Shown here: piece by piece, positions 2,485 to 47,054 of the stretch
How the letters are laid out: the number at the start of each line of letters is the position of its first letter
How positions within the stretch are numbered: position 1 is the first letter of the stretch
Virus record (IMG/VR): IMGVR_UViG_3300037010_002844
Coordinates: 1-64,000 of that record
DNA from: a virus
DNA length: 64,000 nucleotides
Direction: 5' to 3' (one strand)
Program-made: the position numbers and the translations under genes
Notes under the pieces: model-generated
What the model was told of the DNA's origin: nothing
Database searches by the model: none
What the model saw: the letters and a program-made list of their open reading frames with translations, nothing else

Positions 2485-3031
2485 CGTATTTCTCGTATCC
2501 AGGCGCCTTCGTCGCCCAGAGCAGGTATGTCCGCAGCATGGCGACCCGCGTCCTGTCGAAGGCTGCCTTGTCTTTCTTGGTCAACGCACCCAGGCGCCGC
2601 GCTAGCTTCCAACCACGGTGCCAGGCCTCGAACTCTTCATCAACGATGTCAATTCGATGATGAAATGAACGCTTAACGTCGGGATCCTGGTTGCCGTAGC
2701 CCATCCCGTAGCGCTCATATTTGTCCTTGCTGCCGATCAGGTGGTGCCCACACTCATGCAGGAGGATGTGCAGCTGGTGCTTCGGCGAAGCCCGGCCGCT
2801 GACCTTGATCTCCTTGTCAGCCGTGTAGTAGATACCACCGCTGCGCTTGCAGAAGGTCACTGTCAGCGACCGGGCCTCACACCACTCCACCACCACGCGG
2901 AGTGCCGAAACGTAGTGGCGATCTTCCGTCCACCGCTTGGTGGCCCGGTCTGCGTTCTTGCCCGCTTGGATCGCTTTTTGAAAGCGATCCCAGGCACGTG
3001 CATTCCACAGCTCGAGATCGAAGGCCGCCAT
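2444..3031 (-). CDS. putative zinc metallopeptidase-like protein (HExxH)
   Basis: HECGHH motif (LHILLHECGHHLIG). Immediately downstream of the AAA_5 ATPase in the same operon. Confidence 0.45.
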   Translation of the reverse strand: MAAFDLELWNARAWDRFQKAIQAGKNADRATKRWTEDRHYVSALRVVVEWCEARSLTVTFCKRSGGIYYTADKEIKVSGRASPKHQLHILLHECGHHLIGSKDKYERYGMGYGNQDPDVKRSFHHRIDIVDEEFEAWHRGWKLARRLGALTKKDKAAFDRTRVAMLRTYLLWATKAPGYEKYDDPAEADDDATVA

Positions 3032-3044
3032 GCAGGTAACTAGG

Positions 3045-4205
3045 TCACTTCTTCTTCCCTCCCGCCCCGGGCGACTTGAAGATGCCGGGGATGTCAGGAA
3101 CGATGCCGATGCCAGCCTCGCCCATCGGGACGCCGAAGACGTCCAGGACTGCGGCCGCGCAGTACTTGTGGATGCTGCGTGCCAGCTCCATTTTGTCGGT
3201 GCCAGGCAGGGTCAGCTTGGACCAGCAGTTGACGCGCTGCTCACCCGGCAGGTCCTTGAGAAACTGCTTCAGGTTGGTGCCTTGCTTCTCGGTCAGACTG
3301 TTGAGGTTCTTGGTCACGTGGTCCGAGACCTTATCGACCAGATCGTTGATGCGGTCGGCCGTGAACTTCTTGACCTTGTGCTGGACCTTGTCGTACCCGT
3401 CGATCACGTCTTTGCCCGAGACGCGGGTGTCGACGGTGACCGCGAAATCGTGGAAGGCGATCGCCGCCTCGACACCGACGAAGCCCACGGCTATGTGGTA
3501 GAACAGCGGGTTGCTGGGATCATCCGCGACCCCGGCGTGCTTGTGCGAGCGGTCCATACGCTCCCAGCTACGCCGCGAGGAATGAACGCTGCCGGCCTCG
3601 GCGCCCTTGGGCGGGTCGAGCCACTTCTCGCCGTTGGCAGCGTGGAAGTCGATCAGGGTCGGGTGAATGTCACCCTCGCCCTTTGCCCAGGCGAGCCAGT
3701 CCTTGACGTCCGGCTTGAGGTCGACGACCCAGAAGCGATCGAGGAGCGCCGGATCCATCTCGTTGACCGTGTACTCCTGTGAGGAGTTGATGGCCGACCA
3801 GACGCGGGTCTGGGGGTGCAGCTTCCAGCCGTTGAGCTCACGGTCGAGCACGATCTGGAACGCTGCCTGCATGACCTCCTGGGTCGCGCGGTTCAGCTCG
3901 TCCAGCAGGAGGAAGCAGGGCCGGACGCAGGCACGCTTGTACCAGTCGGGCGGATTGAAGCGCGTGACCTCGCCGTCGGTGCTGGGGAGGCCGATGAGAT
4001 CGCCTTCCGTCTTCTGCGACAGGCGCTGGTCGATGAACTCGAAGTCCTTGATCTGCTCCGCGTGAGCGATGATGCGGGCGACCTGGCGAGCCAGCTGCGA
4101 CTTGCCGATCCCGTGAGGACCGCGCAGCAGGACGGAGATGAAGGCGGGGAGCTTGGGAGAGACGTCCACAAGGGTATGGATCGCCATGGAGTTGGGAGTT
4201 GCCAT
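3045..4205 (-). CDS. AAA+ ATPase, AAA_5/MoxR-like subfamily
   Basis: Walker A LLRGPHGIGKSQL, Walker B FLLLDELNRA, sensor region QTRVWSAINSS. Layout typical of MoxR/CbbQ/GvpN-type AAA_5 ATPases. Confidence 0.7.
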   Translation of the reverse strand: MATPNSMAIHTLVDVSPKLPAFISVLLRGPHGIGKSQLARQVARIIAHAEQIKDFEFIDQRLSQKTEGDLIGLPSTDGEVTRFNPPDWYKRACVRPCFLLLDELNRATQEVMQAAFQIVLDRELNGWKLHPQTRVWSAINSSQEYTVNEMDPALLDRFWVVDLKPDVKDWLAWAKGEGDIHPTLIDFHAANGEKWLDPPKGAEAGSVHSSRRSWERMDRSHKHAGVADDPSNPLFYHIAVGFVGVEAAIAFHDFAVTVDTRVSGKDVIDGYDKVQHKVKKFTADRINDLVDKVSDHVTKNLNSLTEKQGTNLKQFLKDLPGEQRVNCWSKLTLPGTDKMELARSIHKYCAAAVLDVFGVPMGEAGIGIVPDIPGIFKSPGAGGKKK

Positions 4206-5540: not shown

Positions 5541-5630
5541 CGGGCCCATGAAAGCCCTCCCGTGGGTCCCCTGTGGGCACAGTTTTGGTTGCTCATGGGC
5601 CCGAGAAGTGTAAGAGCTCATGGGCCCAGG
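5541..5630. repeat. GCTCATGGGCCC iterons in a divergent intergenic region
   Basis: GCTCATGGGCCC occurs directly at 5591-5602 and 5615-5626. Its inverse GGGCCCATGA occurs at 5543-5552. Lies in the 480-bp spacer between the - block and the RecA-like gene. Confidence 0.5.
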
Positions 5631-5851
5631 GTACTATAAGACCATGAGCAACGCCTTCTAGAACTTCGTCAGGCAGCACGATACAGGCATCTCGCGGACC
5701 GGGTGTCCACGCGGCACCTCTCGGGTTCGATCTTGACCTGACTCACCTGTCGGAGCTGCTGCGGCTTGCCCAGCAGACGGGTTACCAGCTCTGCAACACG
5801 GGCTGGGATGACTGCATCATGGTCACCTAGACTTTCAGCGTTGGCTGATCG

Positions 5852-5880
5852 CGCTCGCGAGTGTGCAACCCATTGCACTG
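5852..5880. promoter_or_regulatory. 30-nt inverted-repeat operator, copy 2 of 3
   Basis: CGCTCGCGAGTGTGCAACCCATTGCACTG, about 60 nt upstream of the RecA-like gene. Confidence 0.6.
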
Positions 5881-5941
5881 GGTGAAAATCAGCGCCTGGG
5901 CGTGATAGACTGTAGACCTCCACCACCACGGGGTAAGATAT

Positions 5942-22299: not shown

Positions 22300-23169
22300 A
22301 TGAAGATAAAGGTAAAAGACCTACGCCGCACCATCCGCGAGGCACTCGTTACCGAAGTCGGTATCGATAAGCTCAAGGGCATGAAGGGCACCTTGGGCTC
22401 CACCCATGAGATGAACGTGGCCAAATTGGTGGGCTCGGAGGAGAAGTTCTTCGTCAAGTTCTCTGACATCGCAGAGGACCTTTGGAACGAAGGCGACCCC
22501 GATCCTAGCATGCAGTGCATGAGCGAGTACCTCGCCTACAAGCTGTATGCCCTCTACCCGGGCGTCAAGATTCCCAGCCGTATTGAGTTGGTCTATGATC
22601 CTAACAACTCACGGGTCGGTATTGCCACGGCTGCTGTCAAAGGCAAGATGGCGCTCGGTCGCATCAAGCCTCAGGCGCTGGCGAAGCAGCTCGAGGCAGG
22701 CGTCTACGTCGACATTTTCCTGGCCAATTACGACGTCATCGGTACTGGCGCCGGCAACCTGATATCGTCGGACGACGGCTCAGTCACCCGTATCGACCCG
22801 GGTTCATCGTTCAAGTACCGTGCACGGGGTGGTCGCAAGGGACCTGGCTTCAACGACAAGGCTGGTGAGCTGAACACAATGTTGGACCCTGACTTCGGCT
22901 ATGGCGAGGCAGCCGGGTCAGTCTATCAGTACGCTGACCTCAAGGTCGCAGCCAAGGAGTTCATGACAGTAAGTTGGCCCGCAATCGCCGCGCGTATCGA
23001 TGAGGTTCAGGGGTCAGTCGCGGCTGAACTTGAGGAGAACGGCATGGACGACCTGCTGCAACAGTGGCACGCCGAGGTCAACGACATCAAGAAGGTCCTG
23101 GCTGGCCGTTACAAGGTTGTTACAATGCACGCGCAGAAGGTCCTCGCTGCCGACAAGAAGACACGTTGA
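22300..23169 (+). CDS. N-terminal targeting-motif family protein with a PI3/4-kinase-like catalytic signature (289 aa)
   Basis: Starts MKIKVKDLRRTIREALVTEV. Internal IFLANYDVIGTGAGNLISSDDGSVTRIDPGSSF resembles the GDRHxxN...IDFG catalytic/activation loops of PI3/PI4-kinase-like atypical kinases. Confidence 0.45.
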   Translation: MKIKVKDLRRTIREALVTEVGIDKLKGMKGTLGSTHEMNVAKLVGSEEKFFVKFSDIAEDLWNEGDPDPSMQCMSEYLAYKLYALYPGVKIPSRIELVYDPNNSRVGIATAAVKGKMALGRIKPQALAKQLEAGVYVDIFLANYDVIGTGAGNLISSDDGSVTRIDPGSSFKYRARGGRKGPGFNDKAGELNTMLDPDFGYGEAAGSVYQYADLKVAAKEFMTVSWPAIAARIDEVQGSVAAELEENGMDDLLQQWHAEVNDIKKVLAGRYKVVTMHAQKVLAADKKTR

Positions 23170-23546
23170 TATTGCGACAACGATTCATTGCCACAATCAA
23201 CTCCACTCGCGGGGCCTAACTCTTTTGTTCAAAACGATAGAGGCTCTCAAAGAACTTGTCAAGTATTTTGACCCGTTTGACGGGTATTCCGACGTGTTCA
23301 GCGTACTACTACAGGTACTTGGCATCACGTTGGTCGCTCTCTAGGCGATGCATGTCACCGCAAATGCAGGACTTTCCATCCTAGAGACCGCTGGCCCACC
23401 AGTAACCTGGACCGCCGAGGTCACTTCGTCTGACCAGGCGCTCAACGCCTTGAAGGCCGCGTAGCAGACGTTAATCACCGCCAACGCCAAGAAGAACATC
23501 ATGATCTCGTAGTGACTACACCACGTGAACAGCATCTCTGCGTTCG

Positions 23547-23813
23547 TCACTTTGAGCGCCAGGCAACACGGCCCCGCGTCAGGTCGTAAGGCGAGACTTC
23601 AATCGTCACTCGATCGCCGGGCAGCAGGCGAATGTGGTGGAGCCGCAGCTTGCCCGACAGGGTGCACAGCACCTTGATGCCATTGTCACAGATGACCCTA
23701 AACAGGGTTCCCGGCAACGCTTCGTCGATCATGCCCTGAAGTTCGATCGAGTCCTCGCGCTCGGGCTGCTCTTGCGCCGAGTTGCTCCAGTTCTTCTTGT
23801 TCTTCTTTGCCAT
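23547..23813 (-). CDS. infA: translation initiation factor IF-1 homolog with lysine-rich N-terminal extension
   Basis: [70 protein letters not shown] aligns over its length with bacterial IF-1 ([67 protein letters not shown]). Confidence 0.85.
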
Positions 23814-23976
23814 CGTCTTGTGTCTCGTCGTCACCGAGTTCGGGCGGGGGTGCGGCACCATTGCCGCCATTGTAGCCACCCTCTTGTCCGCCGCTAAAGA
23901 TTCCTGCGCTCCAGCGCATGTTGCGCTCGACTTCTTCTCGAATTAGAGCGCGCAGTTCGCGGATGGTGATCCTCAT
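23698..23976 (-). CDS. N-terminal targeting-motif peptide ORF overlapping the infA start
   Basis: [45 protein letters not shown], which is the motif followed by a Gly/Pro linker. The frame then overlaps the first 115 nt of the IF-1 gene in the -1 register. Confidence 0.4.
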
Positions 23977-27021: not shown

Positions 27022-27405
27022 TCAATGATCGTCTGCGGGCATGCGTTGCTTGAACGTCGTCACCATCTCCATTGTGTCCTTGACGGCCCGATCGTGCAAC
27101 AGCTTGGAACCCGAGCTCGCCAGCGCTGTGATTGCTGACATAAACAACTGCAGGCCCGCGGTGCAGACCAGGATAGTACCCGCGGCCACGTGGAATAGCG
27201 CTAGGACCAGCGCCAAGACCATGGTGAAGACCAGCATGGAAACTCGGCTGTTGCTGGCGCTAGCTGCGGTCACCCAGGCCATCGCTGCCTTCTCGAGGAC
27301 GATCATCTGCAACGTGAAGTTGATCTTCTGCTTGTCGCTGACCGTCTCCCAATCAACGTTTTCCAGCTTCTTCGCGAGTTGTTCCTTGGCCTCTTCCACC
27401 TTCAT
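27022..27405 (-). CDS. membrane protein translationally coupled to groEL (127 aa)
   Basis: Two predicted TM helices (AAMAWVTAASA..., VFTMVLALVLALFHVAAGTILVCTAGL) and an N-terminal coiled coil. Its ATG overlaps the groEL stop (ATGA). Confidence 0.45.
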   Translation of the reverse strand: MKVEEAKEQLAKKLENVDWETVSDKQKINFTLQMIVLEKAAMAWVTAASASNSRVSMLVFTMVLALVLALFHVAAGTILVCTAGLQLFMSAITALASSGSKLLHDRAVKDTMEMVTTFKQRMPADDH

Positions 27406-29009
27406 TCCTTCTTCTCCTCTTCCTCGACCACAACCGCATCGAGCGACAGGAACGTCACCGCGACGGAGACGGCGTTCTTCAGGGCGGTGCGAGTCACCTT
27501 GACGGGATCCACGACGCCAGCGGCGATTAGGTCCTCGTAGGTCTCCTTAGCTGCGTTGTAGCCCAGGGTGACGTCATTGAGGTGCAACTTGTGCAGCTCA
27601 TTGATGACCACGTCGGGAGAGACGCCCGCGTTGGTGACGATGCGCCGCAGGGGCGCAACACATGCAGCCTGCACCACCTTGGCACCGGCGCCGAACGTGG
27701 AGACTGGAATCTGCTGGCTCGCAGCCGCCAGTGCCATGCCGCCGCCGGGAACGATGCCCTCTTCTGCGGCAGCCTTCGTGGCATTGAGAGCGTCTTCAAT
27801 GCGGTACTTGCGTTCCACCATCTCGACTTCCGTCGCGCCACCGACGCGGATGATGGCGACGCCGCTCGCCAACTTGGCGATTCGCATCTTCAGCTTGGTG
27901 ACCTCATCCTGCGTCTTGGTGACGTCTTCCACCTGCGATCGCAGGTTGGCCACGTGAGCGTCGACCTCGGGCTTCGTGGTACCGGTGCCGACCAGCGTCG
28001 TGGACTTGGCGTCGACCGTGACACGCTTGATGGTGCCGAGGTCAGCCAACGTCAGTGTCTCGAGCTTCAATCCCTGCGATGCAGAGACGAGCTTTGCGCC
28101 CGTCAGGGTGGCGATGTCCTGCAGTAGCTCGTCGCGGTGCTGCCCATAGCCCGGTGCCTTAACGGCCACAATCGGCAGGTTGCCCTGGACACGGTTGAGA
28201 ACCAGGCCGTGCAGCGCCTCACCTTCCACGTCTTCTGCGATGATCAGCAGTGGCGTCCGCGTCTGGAGAACCTTCTCTAGGATTGGCACTAGGTCCTTCA
28301 ACACGCTGATCTTCTTGTCAGTGACCAGGACTCGGGCGCCCTCGTAGGTCGCCAACATCCTGTCGGGATTGGTGACGAAGTACGGCGATAGGTAGCCGCG
28401 GTCGAACTGCATACCTTCGACGACGTCGAGGCTGGTCGTCATGCCTTTGGCGTCCTCAACAGTGATAATACCGTCCTTACCGACCTTGCTCATGGCCTGA
28501 GCGATCAGTTGCCCGATTTTCTCGTCACCGTTCGCGGAGATAGTGCCAACCTGGGCGATCTCTTCCGCCGTCGTTAGCTGCTTCGCAGCGCGGATCAGCT
28601 CCTCATCGACAGTGGCCCGTGCCAGCTCGATGCCTTCACATAGTTCCTTCGCCGAGAAGCCAGCCTCCAGCAGTTTCAGGCCTTCCCTGACCATGGCGTG
28701 GGTCAACACCGTTGCTGTTGTCGTGCCGTCACCGGCGACCTCGTTGGTCTGCGATGCGGCCTCCCGGATCAGCTCTGCGCCCATCCTCGCGATGGGGTCC
28801 TTCAGCTTGACAGACTTGGAGACCGTGACGCCATCCTTGGTGACAACCGGCGCCTCGCCCTTGCGCTGGATCAGTACCGTTTTGCCCTTCGGGCCCAGCG
28901 TGCAGCTGACGGCCTCCGCGGCGATCTCGAGACCGTTGTAAAGCTTACGGCGGGCCTCGTCCTTGAAAACAACCTTGGTGACTGCGGGAGTGTCGACGTC
29001 TTGAAACAT
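27402..29009 (-). CDS. groEL: chaperonin GroEL (Cpn60), 535 aa
   Basis: Full-length match to GroEL (AAVEEGIVPGGG, DGTTTATVL). C-terminus lacks GGM repeats and ends EEEEKKE. Confidence 0.95.
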   Translation of the reverse strand: MFQDVDTPAVTKVVFKDEARRKLYNGLEIAAEAVSCTLGPKGKTVLIQRKGEAPVVTKDGVTVSKSVKLKDPIARMGAELIREAASQTNEVAGDGTTTATVLTHAMVREGLKLLEAGFSAKELCEGIELARATVDEELIRAAKQLTTAEEIAQVGTISANGDEKIGQLIAQAMSKVGKDGIITVEDAKGMTTSLDVVEGMQFDRGYLSPYFVTNPDRMLATYEGARVLVTDKKISVLKDLVPILEKVLQTRTPLLIIAEDVEGEALHGLVLNRVQGNLPIVAVKAPGYGQHRDELLQDIATLTGAKLVSASQGLKLETLTLADLGTIKRVTVDAKSTTLVGTGTTKPEVDAHVANLRSQVEDVTKTQDEVTKLKMRIAKLASGVAIIRVGGATEVEMVERKYRIEDALNATKAAAEEGIVPGGGMALAAASQQIPVSTFGAGAKVVQAACVAPLRRIVTNAGVSPDVVINELHKLHLNDVTLGYNAAKETYEDLIAAGVVDPVKVTRTALKNAVSVAVTFLSLDAVVVEEEEKKE

Positions 29010-29046: not shown

Positions 29047-29328
29047 TCAACCGTCCTTTGTGACGGGCAACCAGACAGGCTGTCCCTTGCGCCAGGCGAT
29101 GGCGACGAGGCCCTTCTTGTAGTTGGTGATCAACTCCTTCAGGGTTGCCTTCTGTTGCGGGTCCTTGACTTTGTCGGCATAGCGGAGCAGCCGGTGTTCG
29201 GTGTAGTCAATCACCTTGTGCATGATCCCTGCAAAGATTGACTGCTGAGACTTGTGGAGGTGAAACTCCGTGCCTTCAACGTCCACCTTTGTGCCACCGG
29301 GATTACGAGTCGCCATGCTAGCATTCAT
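29047..29328 (-). CDS. small protein in the GroES position, not GroES-like by sequence (93 aa)
   Basis: Sits immediately upstream of groEL where groES normally lies, but shows no GroES signature. Confidence 0.35.
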   Translation of the reverse strand: MNASMATRNPGGTKVDVEGTEFHLHKSQQSIFAGIMHKVIDYTEHRLLRYADKVKDPQQKATLKELITNYKKGLVAIAWRKGQPVWLPVTKDG

Positions 29329-29778: not shown

Positions 29779-31164
29779 TCACTTTCGATCGAAAGAGCGC
29801 TCAACCTCTTCGACCTCATCGTGCGAGACCTTCACGATTTCGACATCCTTGTCGAGGTTGTAGTTGGGATCGGGCGGGTCGGTGTCAGGCCCGTCTTCCT
29901 CGTCATCCTCTTCAATTTCGACCTTCGTCATCTTGAGGTGCTTGCGGGTCAGGCGATGCATCCGCTCGACCTCATCGACATCCTTGTACTTCTCGAGACG
30001 CTTGACGCGGTCGGCCAACTCCTTGGTTGAGGCCTCGGCCTCTTCGGCGCTCATGAAACGTCGGCGCTTGACGTACTCCTGGATGAAGGCGATGGGCCAA
30101 TCCTTGACACTTTTCATGGCGTCCTTCAGTTCGGGACCCAGCACGGCCTCGATGACCTCAGGCTCCATCTCGTTGATCAACAACAGCTCATCGAAGCGAC
30201 CGGGGCGCAGAATCGCCTCGTCCAGCGAGTTGCGGTCGTTGACCGTCGCGATGACCAACTTCACGTGACGTTGGAAGAACTCCAGCGTCTCCAGGAGCTG
30301 CGCCTGAGCGTGAGCCCGATCGAAGTCATCCAAGATGATCGCGTCTGGTTCGAAGATGCTGATGGCCTCGAACAACGTCGAGCTCTCCAGGCCCGCCACA
30401 TCTTCCACGCGGATGCGGAAAGAGCGCATCTTCAGCTCGGTGACGATGGTTCGCGCCATCGTCGACTTGCCGGTTCCCGGCGGCCCGTACAACATGACAG
30501 ACCGCGAGACGTTGGCATCGATGCAGCGCTTCAGATAGGCCGCGTAGTTTGAGGCCCGCCTCGAGGGCATCGAGTGGAAAGCATCGTCCAATTCGAACAA
30601 CACTCGGGATTCATCGTCATGCAGCACCAGACGCTTGTTCTGGCGCATCACCAGGTTAGCGTCCTTGAACTGTTCCCAAAGCAGGCGCTTGATAACGTTG
30701 CGAGCGTCCTGCAACCGCGCGGTCTCGACGTAGATGTTGTCGATGGCCGACAACTTGGTGTTCATGATGTACCCACACTTGATGCCTTCGACATCGACGA
30801 TGCGGATGATGTTGTTCTCGTCTGACGTTCGAATTGTCTCATACGGATACCCGGTGATCACCTTGATGATCGTCTGGTTGAAGTCCCGCGAGTAGGGCAG
30901 GTTCCACTCGTCACCTGCGAAGTAGTCCTCGCTCCACAGCTCAACCTCGTCAACAAACACCTTGCCGATGGCGAAGGCAGCCTTGACGCCGTTCCACCAA
31001 TTGGGCTTCTCGAGGAAGGGCGCGACAGCGGTGAACACCTCGGTTCCCAAGGCGATCGTCTTCTTGACCTTGCTGATGTTGAACGCGGCCTTCAATTCCT
31101 CCACGAGCGTCCTTTCTTTCTCGAGGCTGGGATCACTCGCCGGGACACGGCTCTTCTTACGCAT
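29779..31164 (-). CDS. classical AAA+ ATPase with 200-aa N-terminal domain
   Basis: Walker A LYGPPGTGKST, Walker B IILDDFD, second region of homology ATVNDRNSLDEAILRPGRFD. Confidence 0.8.
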   Translation of the reverse strand: MRKKSRVPASDPSLEKERTLVEELKAAFNISKVKKTIALGTEVFTAVAPFLEKPNWWNGVKAAFAIGKVFVDEVELWSEDYFAGDEWNLPYSRDFNQTIIKVITGYPYETIRTSDENNIIRIVDVEGIKCGYIMNTKLSAIDNIYVETARLQDARNVIKRLLWEQFKDANLVMRQNKRLVLHDDESRVLFELDDAFHSMPSRRASNYAAYLKRCIDANVSRSVMLYGPPGTGKSTMARTIVTELKMRSFRIRVEDVAGLESSTLFEAISIFEPDAIILDDFDRAHAQAQLLETLEFFQRHVKLVIATVNDRNSLDEAILRPGRFDELLLINEMEPEVIEAVLGPELKDAMKSVKDWPIAFIQEYVKRRRFMSAEEAEASTKELADRVKRLEKYKDVDEVERMHRLTRKHLKMTKVEIEEDDEEDGPDTDPPDPNYNLDKDVEIVKVSHDEVEEVERSFDRK

Positions 31165-31681: not shown

Positions 31682-32596
31682 TCAGATCTTCAACTCCATC
31701 AAGCGCTTGCCCAAGTCCTGGAGGAAGGGCACACCATACTTCAAGTTGCCTTTCGCCTCGAGATCGTGGACCAAGAACTCAGGCAGCACTTCGTCCTGGT
31801 GACGGGCGCCCGCGATTCCCCATGCGATGGCCGCGACAGAGTCCGTGTCGCCGCCCCACTCGATGACCTGGTCCATGATCTCACGGAGAGAGCGCTTGTG
31901 AATCAACAAGGTGTTGACGGCCCAGGCCGTGTTGATGCCCACGTCGTACGGCGAGTGCTTGACATTGCCTTGAACCGGGCCCTCCCAAGGCACACGGAAT
32001 TTTTCGAACAAGGGTAAGCGGGGTTCCAACCACCCCTGCATTGCAGAAAGTTTGCGATGATCGTAGAGCGCGTAATGCGACATCAGGGCGATTGCCATCG
32101 CCGACTGCACGCCCTCGTAAGAGGCGTGCGTGGTGGTCGCCTGAAACGCTGCGACTGTCAGCAACTTGTCAACGTCTTTGATGACGCCCAAGGGCACGGC
32201 ACGCATGGCCGCGCCATTCTTCGTCGAATTGGGCCGCAATGTGGCGCGGAGCTCGTCAGCTGACTTCACCGACTCTAGGATCGCCTGGAACCCACGGGAA
32301 TACCCATCGCGTGGATCACGCTTGAAGGTGTCGAACCAGGCGGCGACCCAGTCGTTGTAGCTAGCGGACGTTCCCTTGTTGATCAGGGTCTCAGCCACCG
32401 CGATCGACATCTGCGTATCGTCAGTGTACATGCCAGGACGCAGGCCTTGGTGACCCGGGTGCTGCATGTAGCCCTGGAAGGCGCGGATTTCCTTGAACTC
32501 CGGCTCATCGGGATGGAACTTGATGTACTCGAACCCGGCAGCGTAGGCATCGCCCAAAGCGATGTGCAGCAGCATGTTGTCGTTGCGGTATCTCAT
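31682..32596 (-). CDS. ADP-ribosylglycohydrolase family protein
   Basis: MLLHIALGDAYAAGFEYIKF...MYTDDTQMSIAVAETL matches the DraG/ARH N-terminal signature. Start placed at the MRYRNDN internal Met, which is an assumption. Confidence 0.65.
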   Translation of the reverse strand: MRYRNDNMLLHIALGDAYAAGFEYIKFHPDEPEFKEIRAFQGYMQHPGHQGLRPGMYTDDTQMSIAVAETLINKGTSASYNDWVAAWFDTFKRDPRDGYSRGFQAILESVKSADELRATLRPNSTKNGAAMRAVPLGVIKDVDKLLTVAAFQATTTHASYEGVQSAMAIALMSHYALYDHRKLSAMQGWLEPRLPLFEKFRVPWEGPVQGNVKHSPYDVGINTAWAVNTLLIHKRSLREIMDQVIEWGGDTDSVAAIAWGIAGARHQDEVLPEFLVHDLEAKGNLKYGVPFLQDLGKRLMELKI

Positions 32597-32606
32597 GTTA
32601 TTTCTC

Positions 32607-32807
32607 TTATGAAAGCCACCAAATGACCAGCATCGTGAATGCGCAGATGATAGCAATGACCATCACGCCTGAATTGAACTTGCGCTGAAACTCTGCGTCG
32701 GCCTTGCGGTACGCCCGCTTCTGGTCTTTGTTGAGCGTCAGCCACCAACGATGAAATCGTTCGCGGCGTTGCCGATCCTTGCGGTTTCTGCGCATCCAGC
32801 CCAACAT
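32607..32807 (-). CDS. small basic tail-anchored membrane protein
   Basis: GGAGGTG RBS before MLGWMRRNRKDRQRRERF. C-terminal TM VMVIAIICAFTMLVIWWL. The longer ORF 32607..32990 is probably an upstream extension. Confidence 0.4.
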   Translation of the reverse strand: MLGWMRRNRKDRQRRERFHRWWLTLNKDQKRAYRKADAEFQRKFNSGVMVIAIICAFTMLVIWWLS

Positions 32808-33444: not shown

Positions 33445-34344
33445 TTACTTCATTCGACCAACAGCACGCAGCAATCGCTTGTTGTAACCGCCAAACGAAC
33501 CCGCGAGCAGGACGCTAGGGTCGACCCAGCGGACAACGCCCGATTCTTCGGTGTCGATTTGGCCCTCAACGCGGCCGGTAAACGTGATAACGTGGTAACC
33601 TCCCTCGTCGACGTCTTCAAAGACTTGATTCAAGTCAGTGATGTGAAGGCCCGTCTCTTCTTCCAGCTCACGGGCCGCTGCAGTCGCTGCGTCCTCGCCT
33701 GGGTCGATCTTGCCACCGGGCAGGCCAAAGTCGCTTGGGTCATTCTTCCCGGAGACTGCGAGGATCTTGCCAGCGCGATTCATCACCAACACACAAGCCG
33801 CACGAGGCAGTGCGGCGGCGTCCTGTTGGACCTTGGCGTCCACGTCAGCCTCATCGTCCAGGATGTTACGATTCTTCTGAGCCAACGTGGCGTCCCCGTA
33901 GCGCAAGTTGCCGGCGACGCCGTCGCGGCCTGCAGTGTTCAACGACTTGAAGCCCGTCAACACTTCGTTGACGAAGACCTTTAGCAGCTCGTGAGACTCT
34001 CGGGCCGGCGTCCTGTAGGGACCCATATCGGGTGACTCTGCGGATTGATCGTCCTGAACGTCAAAGCCTGCTGCGTCGAGGTCGGTGATGAACCGACCAC
34101 GCTCTTCGGGAGTCATCTCCACGAAGATAAAGCGCTCAGTGTCAGCCATGTCATAGGCCCCCGACGACTGACGCCAGGGTTCTTGCGTGGCATTCCACTT
34201 GGCGAGCACCTTGCGTAGCCTCGACCAGTGATCCTGTGACTGCTCAAACGTCCACGTCTTGGACAGGCGGACGTTGCCAGCTCGCCAAGGACCGACCTTC
34301 AATGGCAGAAACTTGCTCATTTCTTCGGTTGTGGGGTTGGACAA
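33445..34344 (-). CDS. Nudix hydrolase with N-terminal extension domain
   Basis: Nudix box GGKIDPGEDAATAAARELEEETGL (GX5EX7REUXEEXGU) in the C-terminal half. Confidence 0.7.
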   Translation of the reverse strand: MSNPTTEEMSKFLPLKVGPWRAGNVRLSKTWTFEQSQDHWSRLRKVLAKWNATQEPWRQSSGAYDMADTERFIFVEMTPEERGRFITDLDAAGFDVQDDQSAESPDMGPYRTPARESHELLKVFVNEVLTGFKSLNTAGRDGVAGNLRYGDATLAQKNRNILDDEADVDAKVQQDAAALPRAACVLVMNRAGKILAVSGKNDPSDFGLPGGKIDPGEDAATAAARELEEETGLHITDLNQVFEDVDEGGYHVITFTGRVEGQIDTEESGVVRWVDPSVLLAGSFGGYNKRLLRAVGRMK

Positions 34345-35019: not shown

Positions 35020-35829
35020 TCAGACCTGTGCATCAGGCGCCGGCGTTCCAGGCAAGTAAGGAACCCAGAAGTCGTTGGCGTTCGAGGCGTCCAAGTACGC
35101 ATAGGGAACGTAGGCATAGCCCTTGTCACCCCACCAGGTACCCCAAGAGTTGCGGACGATCCAGCATTGTTTGTTTTCGTCGTAGCCAACGATGACCTGA
35201 CAGTGACCGCCCGAATTGACCCGCGTGGATTTGGGCATCGGCATGATGCCCCCACGGTAGTCCATGTATTCCTGATCGACCGTCATGCCGAAGACGACCA
35301 CATGGTTGGCCTGCAATGCTCGCTTGATGAAGTCAATCCTCGTCTGACCCGAGCCGCCAATCGAGTAGTAACTGTCGATCTTATTTGGGTAGGCTTCACG
35401 ATACGAGCTCCATGAGGGTCGAATGAAAACCTTGGAGACATCATAAGGCCACTTGGCTTCAGTGCAGGTTCCCAAAGACGACAAGGTGCCAAAGGCCAGG
35501 TGAATGTAGGTGCCGTTGTCCTGGTCCTGTTCCTGCGTCATCAACCTTGAGTTGTAGTAGATGAAGAGGCGGCTGAGATCCGTCAGCTGCTGGCCATTAC
35601 GGATCTGCAGAAACTCGAGGGCGCCGACTGTACCATTGCCCACGCATGAACCTAGGTGACCCTGGTCCTCGACAGGCGAACACCACTTACGTAGGTCCAG
35701 GACGCCGTCGACCTCGGTGGATGCAGGCGAGAACTTGTCGAGGTTCTCATGGAACTGATAGTCCTGGCTGGCGTCGTGGCCGGGAGCTGTGTTATCGGGG
35801 CGCCATCCGCCCAATTTAGGAGTGTACAT
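35020..35829 (-). CDS. papain-like cysteine peptidase (C1 family)
   Basis: Cys motif DQGHLGSCVGNG, and His/Asn region GGHCQVIVGYDE...WIVRNSWGTWWGDKGYAY. Catalytic triad context conserved. Confidence 0.6.
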   Translation of the reverse strand: MYTPKLGGWRPDNTAPGHDASQDYQFHENLDKFSPASTEVDGVLDLRKWCSPVEDQGHLGSCVGNGTVGALEFLQIRNGQQLTDLSRLFIYYNSRLMTQEQDQDNGTYIHLAFGTLSSLGTCTEAKWPYDVSKVFIRPSWSSYREAYPNKIDSYYSIGGSGQTRIDFIKRALQANHVVVFGMTVDQEYMDYRGGIMPMPKSTRVNSGGHCQVIVGYDENKQCWIVRNSWGTWWGDKGYAYVPYAYLDASNANDFWVPYLPGTPAPDAQV

Positions 35830-36735
35830 TTAGGAACCCTTTCGGCCCGTCAGAAACATGAAGATCGCCCTGATGAATGCGAAGAACGTTGCCAAGAAAC
35901 CCGTCGGATTGCCAGGCACGATAGGTGCGGAAGGCACGGGCTTTGGAGGATCGGGAGACGGAGCGACTGGTTCAGGCGTGGGAGGCACGGGTTGTTCTTC
36001 CTGAGGAACTGGTGACGGAGGTGGCTCAGGTGCGGGCACCATGGGTACCGACTCTGGCTTCTTCAACTTGGACGCTTCGATCCAGTCGACCAGGTCGTTG
36101 GCTGCGCCCTGAGTAACATCGAGGTCAACGACGCTGCCGATGCCGTCGATTCGGAAGCCAGGCTTGCCGTCGGCCGCCACGTCTCCGCTCTTCTGCCAGA
36201 TGACCCAGCCTTTTGATTGCCAACACGGTGGAACCCACTTCGTTGGATCATTAACGTAGGCGGCCAACCAAAGATCGCGGGTGGCGAGGGCGGCCAGGGT
36301 CTCAGGTGCAGCACCCTTCATCTCTGCAATGATGATGGAGAGGCCCGTGTAGACGACCACGCGGCGCTCGAACAACTTTTCTAGATGTTCGATGCAGGCC
36401 AACACGTCCTTGGCATACTGGTCGCCTGTCTTGCTGGCGGGCCTCGTCTGCTCAACGTCGAGCATGGGAGGTAGGTCGCTGTCGTTGAGCGGGCCCACCG
36501 TCTTGAAGAAGTGTTCAGCCTGTATGATCGGATCAATCGAGGCGATGTAGAAGTGATACGCCCCACGCGGTAGACCCGCTTTGGGTAGCTCGGCCCAGTT
36601 ATATGCAAAGGAGGAATCGACGGTCTTATCACCGCCGCTCGCCTTTGCATATACGAAGTCAATCTTGCCCGTCGCCTTGACCTTTGCCCAGGCAGGCTTG
36701 CCTTGGGCGTAGGACACATCAATGCCTGTCGCCAT
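35830..36735 (-). CDS. GH25 lysozyme/endolysin with Pro-rich linker and C-terminal hydrophobic anchor
   Basis: GIDVSYAQGKPAWAKVKATGKIDFVYAKASGG...GAYHF is the GH25 signature. C-terminal PEPPPSPVPQEE linker plus TM-like tail FLATFFAFIRAIFMFL. Confidence 0.8.
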   Translation of the reverse strand: MATGIDVSYAQGKPAWAKVKATGKIDFVYAKASGGDKTVDSSFAYNWAELPKAGLPRGAYHFYIASIDPIIQAEHFFKTVGPLNDSDLPPMLDVEQTRPASKTGDQYAKDVLACIEHLEKLFERRVVVYTGLSIIIAEMKGAAPETLAALATRDLWLAAYVNDPTKWVPPCWQSKGWVIWQKSGDVAADGKPGFRIDGIGSVVDLDVTQGAANDLVDWIEASKLKKPESVPMVPAPEPPPSPVPQEEQPVPPTPEPVAPSPDPPKPVPSAPIVPGNPTGFLATFFAFIRAIFMFLTGRKGS

Positions 36736-37499: not shown

Positions 37500-38336
37500 T
37501 CAGCCTTCTCCCCACAGCGGTTCAAACGTCGCCACGAACTTGTCCCACGTCTTGTCCTTGAGCAGCGACTTGAAATCGTGTTGTTCGAACAACTTTCGCA
37601 GTGGCTCCCAATCCTTGGTCGGATGCGAGCACGACATCTCAAGGGCCTCATCATCGGACCAGGTGATGAACTTGATGAGTTCGTAGTTCCTTGAGAACGT
37701 ATCACCTATAACCGAATCGCACAGCAGTAGGTCAGACAGCGCCTCAGGGTCATTGACGATGCGATCAGCGGCCCCGTCAGTGATGATGCCCGGGATGTTA
37801 TCGCTGGGGTCGCCGCGCAAAGCCTTCCAGGTGACGTAATCGTAGTCGGGTACCTCAACGAACTCCTTTTTCATTGGGTTATAGAGGCTAACGTTCGGGA
37901 ACTCGTTCAACAACTGCGTGAAATCCGAATCATTAGATGCCACGACCCACGGGACCGCAGAGCTAGAGCGCTTGATGAGATTGTAGATGGTATCGTCGCA
38001 CTCGTAGTGTGGGTGGCGCACCACAGAGACCGGAAAGTGCTGGCTCAGGTGATCCACGATCACGTGGACTTGCTCGAAGAACTTCACAAGCTCATCGTGC
38101 TCGGGAGTCCCGGGCTCTACCACGCGGTTGGCCTTGTACTCCGGTAGGATGTCCTTACGCTGTTGCGGATGACCCTCCAGGACGAAGTAGACACGGGTCG
38201 GCTTATGGAGTTCGACCTGTGCCCGAAAGTTTCGCATGAAGTTGAAGATGACGGGTGCGGACCCCAACTGCCAACCGCTCCGAGCGCGGTGGAGGAAGTT
38301 CATGCCGTCAATGCAAAGAATCTTTGGATTGCCCAT
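37500..38336 (-). CDS. 5'-3' exonuclease / flap endonuclease (T4 RNase H-like)
   Basis: KILCIDGMNFLHRA, YKANR, ECDDTIYNL and SNDSDFTQLL are the FEN/5'-3' exonuclease motifs. Confidence 0.8.
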   Translation of the reverse strand: MGNPKILCIDGMNFLHRARSGWQLGSAPVIFNFMRNFRAQVELHKPTRVYFVLEGHPQQRKDILPEYKANRVVEPGTPEHDELVKFFEQVHVIVDHLSQHFPVSVVRHPHYECDDTIYNLIKRSSSAVPWVVASNDSDFTQLLNEFPNVSLYNPMKKEFVEVPDYDYVTWKALRGDPSDNIPGIITDGAADRIVNDPEALSDLLLCDSVIGDTFSRNYELIKFITWSDDEALEMSCSHPTKDWEPLRKLFEQHDFKSLLKDKTWDKFVATFEPLWGEG

Positions 38337-38613
38337 GATTGACTCTACCACTCTGACAGGTGAATTTCACAGCAATAGCTCAAGTCCCTCGTAGACCGGC
38401 GTCGTAGTGATCTTCGATAATGTCGGCCACCTTATCGAAAATCCGTTCTTGTGCCATGGTCTCAGTCTACCTATCAAGGGTCAAAGATTGCGCTGTGGCC
38501 CAAATGAGCCCACGGATCACGAGAATGACCCAAAAAGAGGAGGTGGTTTCCCCTTCTTGGGCCGTGCAGGCACTCACGTGGGTCACGCGGGGGCCGAGTT
38601 TGGGCCACAGGAA

Positions 38614-39789
38614 TCAGCCCGAGCCACTGGTGGCGGCCAAGATGATGCCGAGCATCGACCAATCGATAAAGACTTTGCCGGCGACGAGGTCATCGAGGTC
38701 GTACACCTCCACGTAAGTCAACTCAGTATCGTTGGCGATCCCGTGAGTGACGCCGGAACTGTGTTCGTCCTCCAGGCGATTCATTTCAAGTGCTGTCAAC
38801 TCAACAGCGTAGACCACGCCATGATGGGTCGACAGGGCAGCACACATCTGCCGCGAGCCCACGTAACGTAGCCGCGTGGGATCAATATTGATGCCCATCT
38901 CTTCTTCCAACTCGTGGGCCGCCACCACGCGGGCATCCTGACTCAACTTCAGCGAACTACCACCAGGAGCCTCATATACGAAGCCTGCATTGTTGCGAAC
39001 AGAGCTGCGGAACTCCTTGACAAGGGCGACCCTCGTCCCAAGGACATCGGAGTCCGGCCTGTGATACGCCACCACGACGAAGACGTCCGGCCGCGAGAAG
39101 ATGAACTCGTTGGTCTTGTTGCGTTTCTCGGCCGCCACATAGACATCAACCTTCAAGGCATAGCAGAAGGTCACTGCTTTGTTGGGCCCAATGCGGAACG
39201 ACCACAGCAACTGTGCGCCGTCTAAACGATTACCAACAGCCCTCTGGGCCGCGTGCCACGAGCGGAACGCAGGCTGGTGCCAGATATGCAGTGGAACTGA
39301 ACGTTCCCCGCCGAATCGAAGTGCCTTGTGCTTCGTCCTCTCGAGTGCCTGCAGCAGCGTGTTCTGGAGCGTGCTCTCTACTGGGACGCCCTCGAGACGA
39401 GCACGGTGCGCCAGGTAGCGCATGTTATAGGCCTCGGGCGGGTAACCCAGGACCGTCTTTCCGGCATCATAGTACATACCGAACTCGACGTTCGTCGTCA
39501 GGGCAGGTGCCACCTGCATGTCGCGAGGAACCCAGAAGACGACCACGTCGCTCATGTCGAGGTGTTTCTTTTCCCATTCGACCTGATGATCGAAGCCGCA
39601 GTTCCACTTACCATCGCGGGGCAGCGGCACGAAGACGACGCCATCATAGCCCATCTCTTCGAGGAGCTTAAGGGCATCCGGTCGCCAATTCAAATGCGCA
39701 TCAGAACGGGGAGAAGGCCCCGCCAAAAAGATGGACTTCTCAAACGAAGCCGGCGCCTCTTCGGCTGCATAGACGATCTGCATGTTCAT
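38614..39789 (-). CDS. nucleoside 2-deoxyribosyltransferase-like (DRTase/Rcl-like) domain fused to Nudix hydrolase
   Basis: N-terminus SIFLAGPSP...DGVVFVP has a DRTase-like Rossmann signature. C-terminus carries the Nudix box GGSSLKLSQDARVVAAHELEEEMGI. Confidence 0.55.
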   Translation of the reverse strand: MNMQIVYAAEEAPASFEKSIFLAGPSPRSDAHLNWRPDALKLLEEMGYDGVVFVPLPRDGKWNCGFDHQVEWEKKHLDMSDVVVFWVPRDMQVAPALTTNVEFGMYYDAGKTVLGYPPEAYNMRYLAHRARLEGVPVESTLQNTLLQALERTKHKALRFGGERSVPLHIWHQPAFRSWHAAQRAVGNRLDGAQLLWSFRIGPNKAVTFCYALKVDVYVAAEKRNKTNEFIFSRPDVFVVVAYHRPDSDVLGTRVALVKEFRSSVRNNAGFVYEAPGGSSLKLSQDARVVAAHELEEEMGINIDPTRLRYVGSRQMCAALSTHHGVVYAVELTALEMNRLEDEHSSGVTHGIANDTELTYVEVYDLDDLVAGKVFIDWSMLGIILAATSGSG

Positions 39790-42362: not shown

Positions 42363-42866
42363 ATGAAGCTTACCGCTAAACAGTTGCGCAATATCATTCG
42401 TGAGACAATTGATGAAGTCTCAGACGCCGAGAGTGACTGGGAACGCCTCGAGGCTTTGAAGAATCAGGGCGCTGCCTCATTGAAATCAGTTGTGGAAGCT
42501 TGCAATGAAGTCGGCATTGATGATGCCGCACTTGCGAAGATGCGGGCGACTCGCAATGGTTACAATCAGTTTTTCTTCACCTTTGTCAAGGCCAAGGGTC
42601 AATCTTGGACTAGCGCAAGGGCACACAGCCTCTATGACTTTTTCCACAGTCAGACTACTCTTACAGAGGCGGAATCATTGGCGGCGGAGTATGCCGACTT
42701 GTCGTCGAGGTTCATTCACGGAAATGACCCAGACGCAAACTCAGGTGATCCCTACTACCGCAGCGGTGGAATGACGACGCACAAGCCCAGTGGCAAGACG
42801 AGCTCGTGGCGTGAGGATTATCGTTCGCCGAGCACGTACCGCGATCGCAAGCGTGTCTGGCGTTGA
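42363..42866 (+). CDS. N-terminal targeting-motif family protein
   Basis: MKLTAKQLRNIIRETIDEVSD at the internal Met of ORF 42216..42866. Confidence 0.45.
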   Translation: MKLTAKQLRNIIRETIDEVSDAESDWERLEALKNQGAASLKSVVEACNEVGIDDAALAKMRATRNGYNQFFFTFVKAKGQSWTSARAHSLYDFFHSQTTLTEAESLAAEYADLSSRFIHGNDPDANSGDPYYRSGGMTTHKPSGKTSSWREDYRSPSTYRDRKRVWR

Positions 42867-43333: not shown

Positions 43334-43591
43334 CTACTTCTGCTTTGCCAATTTCACGAAGACATCATAAGGGATCATCTTCAGTGCCTTGACGGCCATA
43401 TCGACGGTCTTGAAGTATTCAACAAGGTCTTTTTCATCCTTGATGTCACCCTTCATCACTGCCTCGATGACGCGGTCCTGCAAGTCCTCGCGAATACGCT
43501 CCTTTTTCATGTAGTCCTCAGAGGCAGAGATCGCCTCGCGGATCAGGCTGCGCAGCCTCGACAATGACAGCTTCATCCGAGTAAGTATCAA
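43334..43591 (-). CDS. N-terminal targeting-motif family protein (85 aa)
   Basis: MKLSLSRLRSLIREAISASEDY. Confidence 0.45.
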   Translation of the reverse strand: MILTRMKLSLSRLRSLIREAISASEDYMKKERIREDLQDRVIEAVMKGDIKDEKDLVEYFKTVDMAVKALKMIPYDVFVKLAKQK

Positions 43592-45092: not shown

Positions 45093-46211
45093 TCAGAAGC
45101 TTTTGATCTTCTGAATAACGCTCTCGTAGTCTCGAACATAGCCGCTGTTCTTGGGAATGCCGGCCTCGAGGACCTGCTTGACGTTGCCTTCCAACGACTT
45201 CACATAGAACTCCTTCATGGATTTCTTGACCGTTGCTAGCATCTGCTGCTCTGCAGCCTGGCGTTCCTCGGGCTTGGCTTGCTGTAGTTTATCGAGTCCC
45301 TTCAACGGCTTGCCGATCTTCTTCTGTAGCTCTTCCACCGACTTGGCGGTGCAGACGGCCTGAGCATGTTCCAACACTGTCTTCAAGGTATTGTGCACTG
45401 CCGCCCGCGCTTTCTTCTGCATACGCTGAGCCTCCGGCGAACTGAGCGCCTTCTTGACGACTTTTTCAGAGGTGATCAGGTCGACCACCTTCTGCTTCTT
45501 GTTTTTCTTTTGATCGTCCTCACGGATGACGCTCTCGTGAGTGCCACCGTAACCTCCGCCCCCGCCATAATCGAATCCGTACATATAGTCCATGCCCATC
45601 GTGCCGCCACCTCCATAGCCGCCCGCTGGTGATTCGAAGTGATCCTTGCTGCTTTTGCCAGTACCAAAGCCCCCGCCGATTGCCTTACGGACCTTTTCGA
45701 TCCACGAGTCCAGCGTGCCGCCCGACAGGATGCCCAACATTCTTAGCGCAACATCAGGGGCCTTCTTGGCCATGACGCCCGTCAGGACGGCACCAGGATA
45801 ACAGAAGAACGCCGTCAGCGCCACATCGGTCTGCTTGAAGGCGTCCCAGGTCGCTGCATAGACCTCACTGTACTCGTTGCGGATCTTGTCGAGCTCTTCC
45901 TTTTCCTTGTCGAAGATCTCCTTGTAATCAGACGTCAAGAAAGGCAGCAGGCTCGTCGCCACTGCCTCAAAGCCGACCTTGGCCAGGGTCTGAACGCGCT
46001 GGCTCATCTCCTTGGTCTTGCCAACGGCGACGTCGACCACGTCAACGAAAGGCTTAACAAACGCCTTGTAGAGCATATCGCCCGACGTGTAGTGAACGCC
46101 ATACGGCGTCATCGCGTAGGCAGCACTCATCACAGAGGCAACGTCGTCCCCCTCTTTCAGGACTGTTCTGACGTACTCACGTAGGACCTGATGTTCCTTG
46201 AGGCGCTTCAT
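45093..46211 (-). CDS. hypothetical protein with Gly/Tyr-rich low-complexity segment (372 aa)
   Basis: GGGFGTGKSS...AGGYGGGGTMGMDYMYGFDYGGGGGYGG. N-terminus MKRLKEHQVLREYVRTVL is a weak match to the shared motif. Confidence 0.4.
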   Translation of the reverse strand: MKRLKEHQVLREYVRTVLKEGDDVASVMSAAYAMTPYGVHYTSGDMLYKAFVKPFVDVVDVAVGKTKEMSQRVQTLAKVGFEAVATSLLPFLTSDYKEIFDKEKEELDKIRNEYSEVYAATWDAFKQTDVALTAFFCYPGAVLTGVMAKKAPDVALRMLGILSGGTLDSWIEKVRKAIGGGFGTGKSSKDHFESPAGGYGGGGTMGMDYMYGFDYGGGGGYGGTHESVIREDDQKKNKKQKVVDLITSEKVVKKALSSPEAQRMQKKARAAVHNTLKTVLEHAQAVCTAKSVEELQKKIGKPLKGLDKLQQAKPEERQAAEQQMLATVKKSMKEFYVKSLEGNVKQVLEAGIPKNSGYVRDYESVIQKIKSF

Positions 46212-46554: not shown

Positions 46555-47019
46555 TCACCCTTCCTCCTTATGAAAGGCCTCATGCAGGCGATTGACGGCC
46601 TCTGCAATCAACGCACGTTGGTAGGCGTGAATGATCGGCAGCTCGCCGACCCTGAACCAACGCGCGTCGGCGACCTCAGAATCTGGATCGCTGGCATCAG
46701 GCACCCGTGAGCACGATTGCTGTGCCAGGTACGAGACCACGGTCTTGTCTTCATGCTTGTAGCCGGCATACGCGTCAGGCAGACGATCCTCTAGGATGAC
46801 GTCAATTCCTGCTTCTTCACGGGTCTCACGGGTCGCGCACTGTTCCGGTGTCTCGCCTTCGTGCATGTGACCCTTGGGAATGCCCCACGAGTCCTTGTGA
46901 GCGAACTGCTTCACCAGCAAAATACACGTGTCATCCCAGGTTTCTCCAAACCTGTACACCAGCGTGCCACAAGAGATGGTCTTTCGGCGCTCCTTGTGCT
47001 CCTTGTTCTTTGCTCCCAT
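46555..47019 (-). CDS. Nudix hydrolase
   Basis: Nudix box GIPKGHMHEGETPEQCATRETREEAGI. Start at MGAKNKEH is preceded by GTGTAGGATAACTAGC. Confidence 0.7.
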   Translation of the reverse strand: MGAKNKEHKERRKTISCGTLVYRFGETWDDTCILLVKQFAHKDSWGIPKGHMHEGETPEQCATRETREEAGIDVILEDRLPDAYAGYKHEDKTVVSYLAQQSCSRVPDASDPDSEVADARWFRVGELPIIHAYQRALIAEAVNRLHEAFHKEEG

Positions 47020-47054
47020 GCTAGTTATCCTACACTGGATCCGGAGATTTTGAC

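Follow-up and report, generated by a model that had tools for sequence, protein, structure and literature searches.

The 64-kb stretch of DNA analyzed here (positions 1 to 64,000 of the IMG/VR virus record IMGVR_UViG_3300037010_002844, below called the window) carries on its minus strand, at 23547-23976, a cassette in which an infA-type gene for translation initiation factor IF-1 starts inside an upstream open reading frame (ORF), here named ORF-A. The two look like separate overlapping genes and not like a general frameshift fusion. We consider it probable that IF-1 is translated from its own ATG and acts on the host 30S subunit with a basic tail, and that ORF-A is co-expressed with it and functionally tied to it. 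The cassette belongs to a large uncultured phage lineage. The source was taken as a phage, which we infer from the relatives in IMG/VR, where contigs of related loci reach 369 kb, from an endolysin gene and from the auxiliary gene content, with thymidine kinase, NUDIX hydrolases, a CCA-adding enzyme and a GroEL-type chaperonin.

ORF-A and IF-1 are conserved overlapping genes

Residues 23-86 of the IF-1 protein cover the full Pfam model PF01176 (positions 1-64 of 64, E=5.9e-22, 77.5 bits vs. 30.2), and the NCBIfam infA equivalog TIGR00008 is matched over model positions 1-68 of 69 with 91.7 bits, the cutoff being 61.15. The eleven best matches among PDB chains of IF-1 gave E-values from 2e-24 to 5e-19. 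In these alignments, which include the structures from C. difficile, T. thermophilus and E. coli (1AH9), residues 19-88 span full-length IF-1. Nuclear magnetic resonance and docking of C. difficile IF-1 (Cd-IF1) placed K39, R41, M42, R46, H35, Y60, R64 and R66 in contact with the 530 loop, A1492/A1493 and S12 (PMC10913371). Six of these eight residues, in Cd-IF1 numbering, are identical here (K39, R41, R46, Y60, R64 and R66) and two are substituted, M42 by L and H35 by T, as read on the PDB alignment. Since six of eight contact residues are retained, the objection that the protein might be a degenerate oligonucleotide/oligosaccharide-binding (OB) fold fails. Judged by its sequence the phage IF-1 is a genuine, intact infA-type protein, in agreement with the original prediction, made by a model from the DNA letters without database searches, which had named it a bona fide and nearly full-length infA homolog.

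The same prediction had pointed to a motif-bearing ORF of 92 codons that overlaps the start of IF-1. A search profile built from six ORF-A sequences retrieved 96 protein clusters (61-111 aa), all without a name or a Pfam domain and found in viral or metagenomic DNA only; no relative was found in 185,579 bacterial and archaeal species, with one genome per species scanned. Exact look-ups of the 88-aa and 92-aa products and of a 110-aa product gave no entry. ORF-A is ordered as a leader helix, a Gly/Pro-rich linker and an acidic tail, and alignments of the family show the N-terminal leader, the motifs R-x-SAGFF-GG and P-x-P-G-L-G, and an acidic tail that often ends YGKEQEKSQFAVRVDDR. Mismatches were scored by codon phase in 133 pairwise comparisons among 20 loci. 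Where only ORF-A is encoded, the rates at ORF-A positions 1/2/3 were 0.30/0.23/0.54, with the peak at the third position of ORF-A, and in the IF-1-only region the rates at IF-1 positions 1/2/3 were 0.27/0.15/0.60, with the peak at the third position of IF-1. In the overlap they were flat (0.30/0.29/0.36 at IF-1 positions 1/2/3). The single-coding flanks of both genes carry the purifying-selection signature of proteins, and within the overlap each frame restrains change at the third positions of the other.

Genes of high GC content often have long open shadow frames, and for ORF-A no family was found in Pfam, NCBIfam or PHROG, as could be expected if its frame were open only by the GC-richness of the DNA and IF-1 were the sole gene. 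However, some of its 96 homologous clusters are in genomes of 34-40% GC, the third-position periodicity is clear in ORF-A's own frame, and the leader and the R-x-SAGFF and PxPGLG motifs are conserved; we regard this explanation as hardly credible. That both frames are open in the overlap is no accident, since ORF-A has 96 clusters of homologues, shows coding periodicity and overlaps IF-1 in the same way in about 20 diverged loci. The predicted ORF is thus borne out and is, as far as its sequence tells, a real, virus-specific gene.

The related loci were gathered from IF-1 relatives in IMG/VR and from ORF-A relatives in IMG/VR and JGI metagenomes. In about 20 distinct loci, with GC contents of 0.34-0.66, ORF-A lies before IF-1 and IF-1 is always in the +1 frame. 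This is also the geometry that had been predicted for the window, where the two start positions are 163 nucleotides (nt) apart (23976-23813 = 163 = 54x3+1) and both frames stay open across an overlap of 116 nt; in the relatives ORF-A stops 35-95 nt past the IF-1 ATG. The ATG itself is present in 20/20 loci, and over it ORF-A has the codon pair NAT-GNN. All four bases occur in the first position of NAT, and the ORF-A residues encoded differ among the loci, being D, N, Y or H and next G or E. The third base of NAT is T in 20/20 loci, as compared to 91 T vs. 91 C in the other NAY codons of the same ORFs, and in L003, a locus of 66% GC, none of the ten other NAY codons ends in T. With an invariant T at this position and 91:91 elsewhere, a synonymous site of ORF-A is therefore held to preserve the start codon of IF-1.

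A comparison with bacterial infA, named as a check in the original prediction, was made as a neighbor-joining tree of the IF-1 core, with about 70 residues only and without bootstrap. The ORF-A-linked sequences, except that of L005, formed one clade, separate from other viral IF-1s and from cellular IF-1s. Other viral IF-1 loci (L006, L007, L008, L012, L015 and L017) have a different upstream gene and no overlap.

Separate translation or a frameshift fusion

The original prediction had offered two ways in which the motif peptide of ORF-A could accompany IF-1, a +1 ribosomal frameshift that appends it or translational coupling that co-expresses it. Programmed +1 frameshifting (or other recoding) in the overlap would join ORF-A to IF-1, and part of the IF-1 pool would then be routed by the leader. 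The +1 geometry in every locus is in line with this, as are the AAA-G and CCC-C sites that the window has in frame with ORF-A and a natural fusion, in frame and 147 aa long, that was assembled independently from two samples. Further, ORF-A lacks a domain of its own, being leader and flexible linker, and resembles other leader proteins of the lineage, which do have a downstream domain. On the other hand, the IF-1 ATG is under selection, the IF-1 frame has stops 1-12 codons before the ATG in L002, L004, L081 and L095, and ORF-A ends 35 nt past the ATG in L094, L095 and L099. A shift site shared by all loci would therefore be confined to about 35 nt, and in this common stretch of Lys/Glu-coding repeats no slippery motif common to all loci was found. 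The contexts of the ORF-A stop (GAT TGA, GGA TGA and GTT TAG) do not offer +1 re-pairing, and both the position and the context of the stop vary. The RNA structure predicted around the junction and the IF-1 start (161 nt of this window) did not go beyond that of shuffled controls (z = +0.53). Fused ORF-A::IF-1 proteins were seen in 0/96 ORF-A clusters and in 1/106 IF-1-containing clusters, and when 1.84 billion representatives were scanned in full, the top 150 matches included none. The search of the overlap for slippery sequence and structure thus came out negative, and the appended motif peptide does not hold up as a general product; we consider frameshifting of this kind unlikely.

Other candidates were tried and rejected. 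Long IF-1 matches (115-165 aa) in the library of 1.84 billion proteins proved not to be further fusions but bacterial infA with mis-called starts. A +1 slip or stall at the polyproline site CCC CCG CCC does not fit L002 and L004, which have an IF-1-frame stop between it and the ATG, nor the low-GC relatives, which carry PLQG, PLPG or VPPG instead of PPP. As for transcriptional slippage, high-GC members are without a homopolymer run, and the A7 run of L081 is upstream of an IF-1-frame stop.

As in prfB (RF2), a downstream domain lies +1 to a short upstream ORF; a further likeness may be the in-frame version of a few genomes. The downstream domain in a prfB-like system is without a start codon of its own, whereas IF-1 has a conserved one, and the loci compared have neither a conserved slippery or hungry-codon shift site with a stimulator nor a Shine-Dalgarno stimulator at constant spacing, nor a conserved stop position. 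In-frame (unshifted) orthologues were found in one lineage only (P0097, two samples), with none among the other clusters. In this lineage a deletion of one T relative to the sister locus L095 (GATTATG to GATATG) has put both genes into a single frame. The lake samples Ga0194131 and Ga0194132 were assembled independently and their sequences are identical over 3.2 kb; an assembly slip is unlikely, because the identical fusion was obtained from two samples. The internal ATG is kept in the fusion, so free IF-1 can still be made. Evidently the fusion is tolerated, which is not proof of recoding in other lineages.

Co-expression of two separate genes is the better half of the predicted alternative. 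ORF-A and IF-1 are on the same strand, no promoter-like or terminator-like site was found between them, which is consistent with one transcript, and the overlap is kept in relatives, all as in a coupled gene pair. In several loci AGGAG or GAGG precedes the IF-1 ATG by 5-11 nt. The overlaps of coupled genes are usually of the ATGA or TGATG kind, and in this respect the cassette departs from the usual coupling.

Several observations weigh against two separately translated, coupled genes. The overlap, here and in the relatives, far exceeds the 1-4 nt of the stop/start termination-reinitiation type, yet it persists, and the Shine-Dalgarno-like sequence before the IF-1 ATG is weak in this window. 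The sole locus without overlap, L005, is a weak control. There, a leader-bearing acidic ORF of 72 aa ends 28 nt before IF-1, which has a TAA directly before its ATG, a good Shine-Dalgarno and no Lys-rich head; the ORF resembles ORF-A over the 22-residue leader only, and its orthology to ORF-A is uncertain for this reason. AlphaFold2, run on ORF-A with 97 sequences, predicted a helix at residues 5-22 with a predicted local distance difference test score (pLDDT) of about 90, and gave about 50 for the remainder, which is apparently a disordered chain. In this model ORF-A has no globular domain after leader and linker and would resemble a tag lacking its cargo, directly before a domain of cargo size. 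Finally, the in-frame fusion of one lineage suggests that the products of ORF-A and IF-1 are functionally linked; gene fusion is classically a hint of physical or functional association.

Basic head, acidic tail and N-terminal leader

The Lys-rich N-terminal extension of IF-1, another part of the original prediction, was recovered as residues 1-18, which lie outside the IF-1 alignment and have no counterpart in 80 cellular IF-1 genes that were fetched. Cellular IF-1s with a clear start have MAKED, MAKQE or similar immediately before the first strand. In the overlapping loci the first ten residues of IF-1 contain 2-6 Lys/Arg and usually no acidic residues, and they are basic in all. The IF-1 of L005 is net acidic across these ten residues, as E. 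coli IF-1 presumably also is; for the latter the match to PDB 1AH9 is the checked comparison. The tail of ORF-A is built of GAN codons, and the +1 reading of these gives ANG or AAN codons, so that a stretch rich in GAA/GAG is read one base later as AAG/AAC. The tail of IF-1 is Lys-rich because its codons are this GAA/GAG-rich stretch of ORF-A shifted by +1; one purine-rich stretch of bases yields, in two readings, the acidic tail of ORF-A and the basic head of IF-1. Outside the window, a protein of 343 aa (P0203) has two tandem IF-1 domains and Lys-rich low-complexity tails; it is unrelated to ORF-A.

Possibly, the opposite charges also bring the two products together. ORF-A would then be a partner or adaptor in trans, with its acidic disordered tail bound to the Lys-rich head of IF-1, and either the leader would dock the pair to a phage structure, such as the capsid core or another assembly, or the tail would mask IF-1 until it is required. 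Such a partnership would fit a gene pair that is kept across wide divergence, the opposite charges encoded in the two frames of the overlap, the natural gene fusion, and a leader common to many otherwise unrelated proteins. Yet the charge mirror is the automatic outcome of GAR repeats read in the +1 frame, and the cassette is usually beside GroES/GroEL-like genes and not beside recognizable structural genes. We find this model rather doubtful; it is compatible with separate translation of ORF-A and IF-1, and could coexist with it.

The leader follows the pattern M-[KR]-[IL]-x-[LIV]-x-x-L-[RK]-x-x-I-R-E-[EA]. It starts with MK, is helical and ends with I-R-E, an ending that we take to resemble L/I-x-E, where the prohead protease of T4 cleaves. 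In the window, four ORFs are headed by a strict match (five with a looser one), as compared to about 0.2 start sites expected in shuffles. The leader is found on dozens of ORFs in related loci (L002, L081-L111), where a Gly/Pro-rich linker and, after it, unrelated sequence often follow, and in L106-L111 one identical 20-residue head is on different proteins. A scan of all fetched loci gave no leader-headed ORF in L006-L080, which are other IF-1-carrying phage loci. The leader-bearing proteins had no significant match in Pfam, NCBIfam or PHROG (sub-threshold matches only), and the literature, searched as text for the peptide, gave no match. Since it heads many otherwise unrelated proteins, the leader can be regarded as a real and portable N-terminal module of this phage lineage.

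A second N-terminal motif, (K/E)xxLREY(I/V)(K/R)E, recurs at the start of further ORFs in this lineage. It was seen in the window at 45093-46211 (-), and in L081 at 5610-5897, in L082 at 7-549 and in L085 at 907-1419; in low-GC loci one such gene is shortly downstream of IF-1.

The leader might be a genuine sorting signal to the capsid core or to another assembly built by the phage, with ORF-A as an adaptor that carries IF-1 there, and IF-1 would be packaged and delivered with the DNA to the next host. The link between ORF-A and IF-1 could in this case be covalent, by low-level +1 recoding or by natural fusion, or electrostatic, by the acidic tail. We judge this to be very improbable. The original prediction had hinted that IF-1 might be delivered to a particle or compartment; this would be a minority reading, kept alive by the single natural fusion.

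The idea has a parallel in the capsid targeting sequence of T4, a short N-terminal peptide on the otherwise unrelated internal proteins IPI-III (PMC3012670). Here too, a short N-terminal peptide is common to unrelated proteins of one phage, on four to five ORFs in the window as counted above. The resemblance is one of form only, with no sequence homology, and the cassette is beside chaperonin genes.

Neighborhood, known systems and meaning

In most related loci, a GroES-sized gene and then a Cpn60 gene are just upstream of ORF-A/IF-1, and the window has both (Table 1), which suggests that the chaperonin genes and the cassette form a module for protein synthesis and folding. Downstream of IF-1, the window has a small hydrophobic ORF, and L082 has a hydrophobic ORF of 74 aa similarly placed. 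The window further encodes a homologue of Major Vault Protein (MVP). MVP homologues with 40-69% identity are on 13 IMG/VR contigs, and the 369-kb contig holds MVP and the IF-1 cassette of L001 about 12 kb apart, the same spacing as in the window. A preprint has already described viral MVPs (10.1101/2023.11.10.566534). Among the genes of the 64-kb window, none for capsid, portal, terminase or tail was recognized, nor was a prohead protease or scaffold gene identified there, and no tRNA genes were found in it.

An AT-rich hexamer, TA-N-T-[TA]-[AT], begins 8-22 nt before the ATG in 10/86 crude gene calls vs. 0.7% of random positions, and may be a promoter element that gives very short mRNA leaders. 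Upstream of ORF-A the sequence TAGTTA lies 5 nt from the ATG. Shine-Dalgarno-like sequences precede 18/86 gene calls vs. 4%.

Table 1. Features of the cassette, of the rest of the window and of the natural fusion (window positions unless a contig is named)
Feature	Position	Strand	Description	Basis
ORF-A (upstream ORF)	23698..23976	-	92 aa, ATG at 23976, stop 23698-23700	96 homologous clusters, codon periodicity, AlphaFold2
ORF-A N-terminal leader module	23917..23976	-	also on other proteins of genome and lineage
PPPELG motif of ORF-A	23833..23850	-	family consensus P-x-P-G-L-G; L47 and G48 nearly invariant	family alignments
Dual-coding overlap, 116 nt	23698..23813	-	ORF-A acidic tail; IF-1 basic head and first strand
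IF-1 (infA-type) gene	23547..23813	-	88 aa + stop, ATG start; stop codon 23547-23549	PF01176, TIGR00008, PDB IF-1 chains
IF-1 start codon ATG	23811..23813	-	within ORF-A codons GAT-GGC	kept in 20/20 loci
Lys-rich N-terminal extension of IF-1, residues 1-18	23760..23813	-	outside IF-1 alignment	missing from 80 cellular IF-1s
OB-fold core of IF-1, residues 19-88	23550..23759	-		end-to-end alignment with C. difficile, E. coli and T. thermophilus IF-1
Natural ORF-A::IF-1 fusion (P0097)	3001-3444 in Ga0194131_10014023 (L097 = L192); 2578-3021 in Ga0194132_10041006 (L193)		147 codons/aa
Leader-headed ORF	22300-23169	+	289 aa; convergent with IF-1, arrangement kept in L002 and L089
Leader-headed ORF	42363-42866	+
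Leader-headed ORF	43334-43576	-
Leader-headed ORF, looser match	57617-58216	-
Hydrophobic ORF	23341-23550	-	69 aa; GTG start overlapping IF-1 stop (AAGTGA)
Major Vault Protein homologue	11150-13729	+	full-length, 859 aa	MVP shoulder E=3e-28, Vault repeat, Band_7
GroEL-type Cpn60	27402-29009	-
GroES-sized gene	29047-29328	-	93 aa
AAA ATPase	29779-31164	-
ADP-ribosylglycohydrolase	31682-32656	-
NUDIX hydrolase	33445-34344	-
Papain-family C1 peptidase	35020-35829	-
Endolysin	35830-36735	-
5'-3' exonuclease	37500-38351	-
Nucleoside 2-deoxyribosyltransferase-like protein	38614-39789	-
Second NUDIX hydrolase	46555-47061	-
CN hydrolase	53529-54296	-
Fe/Mn superoxide dismutase C-terminal domain	58213-59010	-
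CCA-adding enzyme	59910-60785	-
Thymidine kinase	61450-62025	-
HslV-like peptidase	62587-63192	-

IF-1 genes in huge phages have already been published by Al-Shayeb et al. 2020 (PMC7162821), and a search of phage records also shows the gene in Lak megaphages, Sinorhizobium phage Phosso, Bacteroides phage DAC16 and others. The statement of the original prediction that IF-1 is uncommon in viruses stands as to rarity (36/50,697 phage records overall) and has to be qualified, as the gene is published for huge phages and is recurrent in IMG/VR, where six peptide patterns gave 166 confirmed IF-1 stretches. A host inference from a Gemmatimonadota-rich IF-1 list was dropped, since the list is biased by the peptide pattern IEVSPYDL. 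Like the huge-phage genes, the one described here encodes a bacterial-type IF-1 in a very large phage genome with other translation genes (here a CCA-adding enzyme), with redirection of host translation initiation as the proposed role; it differs by its Lys-rich extension, its start inside a conserved upstream gene and its own clade.

A basic N-terminal extension on a phage translation protein is known from rpS21 of huge phages (PMC7162821), and the basic N-terminal tail of eIF1A is a functional analogue (PMC2731904). In all of these, a small ribosome-binding initiation protein carries a basic, probably RNA-binding N-terminal tail. Homology of the tails is not claimed, and here, in contrast, the tail is the acidic tail of another gene read in the +1 frame. 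With overlapping or overprinted phage genes such as those of phiX174 and MS2, and with translationally coupled operons such as infC-rpmI-rplT, the cassette shares two frames that are read from one stretch of RNA, co-expressed and both constrained. It differs from them in that the overlap is long (35-116 nt), variable and of low complexity, with opposite charges in the two frames.

Taken together, we favor two separate overlapping genes and infer the following course of events. ORF-A and IF-1 are probably on one transcript with their frames overlapping, and IF-1 would be initiated at its own conserved ATG within the acidic 3' part of ORF-A. The overlap would supply IF-1 with its Lys-rich N-terminal tail. 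The IF-1 core would bind the A site of the host 30S subunit like cellular IF-1, and the basic tail would add RNA affinity, probably by contacts with rRNA or mRNA, so that the phage could maintain or skew translation initiation in the infected cell. ORF-A would be a small, mostly disordered acidic protein with the leader helix of the lineage, co-expressed and probably functionally tied to IF-1, with which it may interact.

Phage IF-1 as such is already known. The apparent novelty lies in a conserved partner gene, confined to viruses, in which the bases for the acidic tail also encode the basic head of IF-1, in loci from 34 to 66% GC, with one natural fusion; in the literature we found no description of an ORF-A/IF-1 dual-coding cassette, of the charge mirror, of the natural fusion or of the shared leader. 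If the tail does alter the seating of IF-1 on the 30S subunit, the phage would tune initiation without replacing the ribosome. The leader, found on many unrelated proteins in a lineage that also has chaperonins and a vault-protein homologue, in addition offers a handle on whether huge phages sort proteins by a linear signal.

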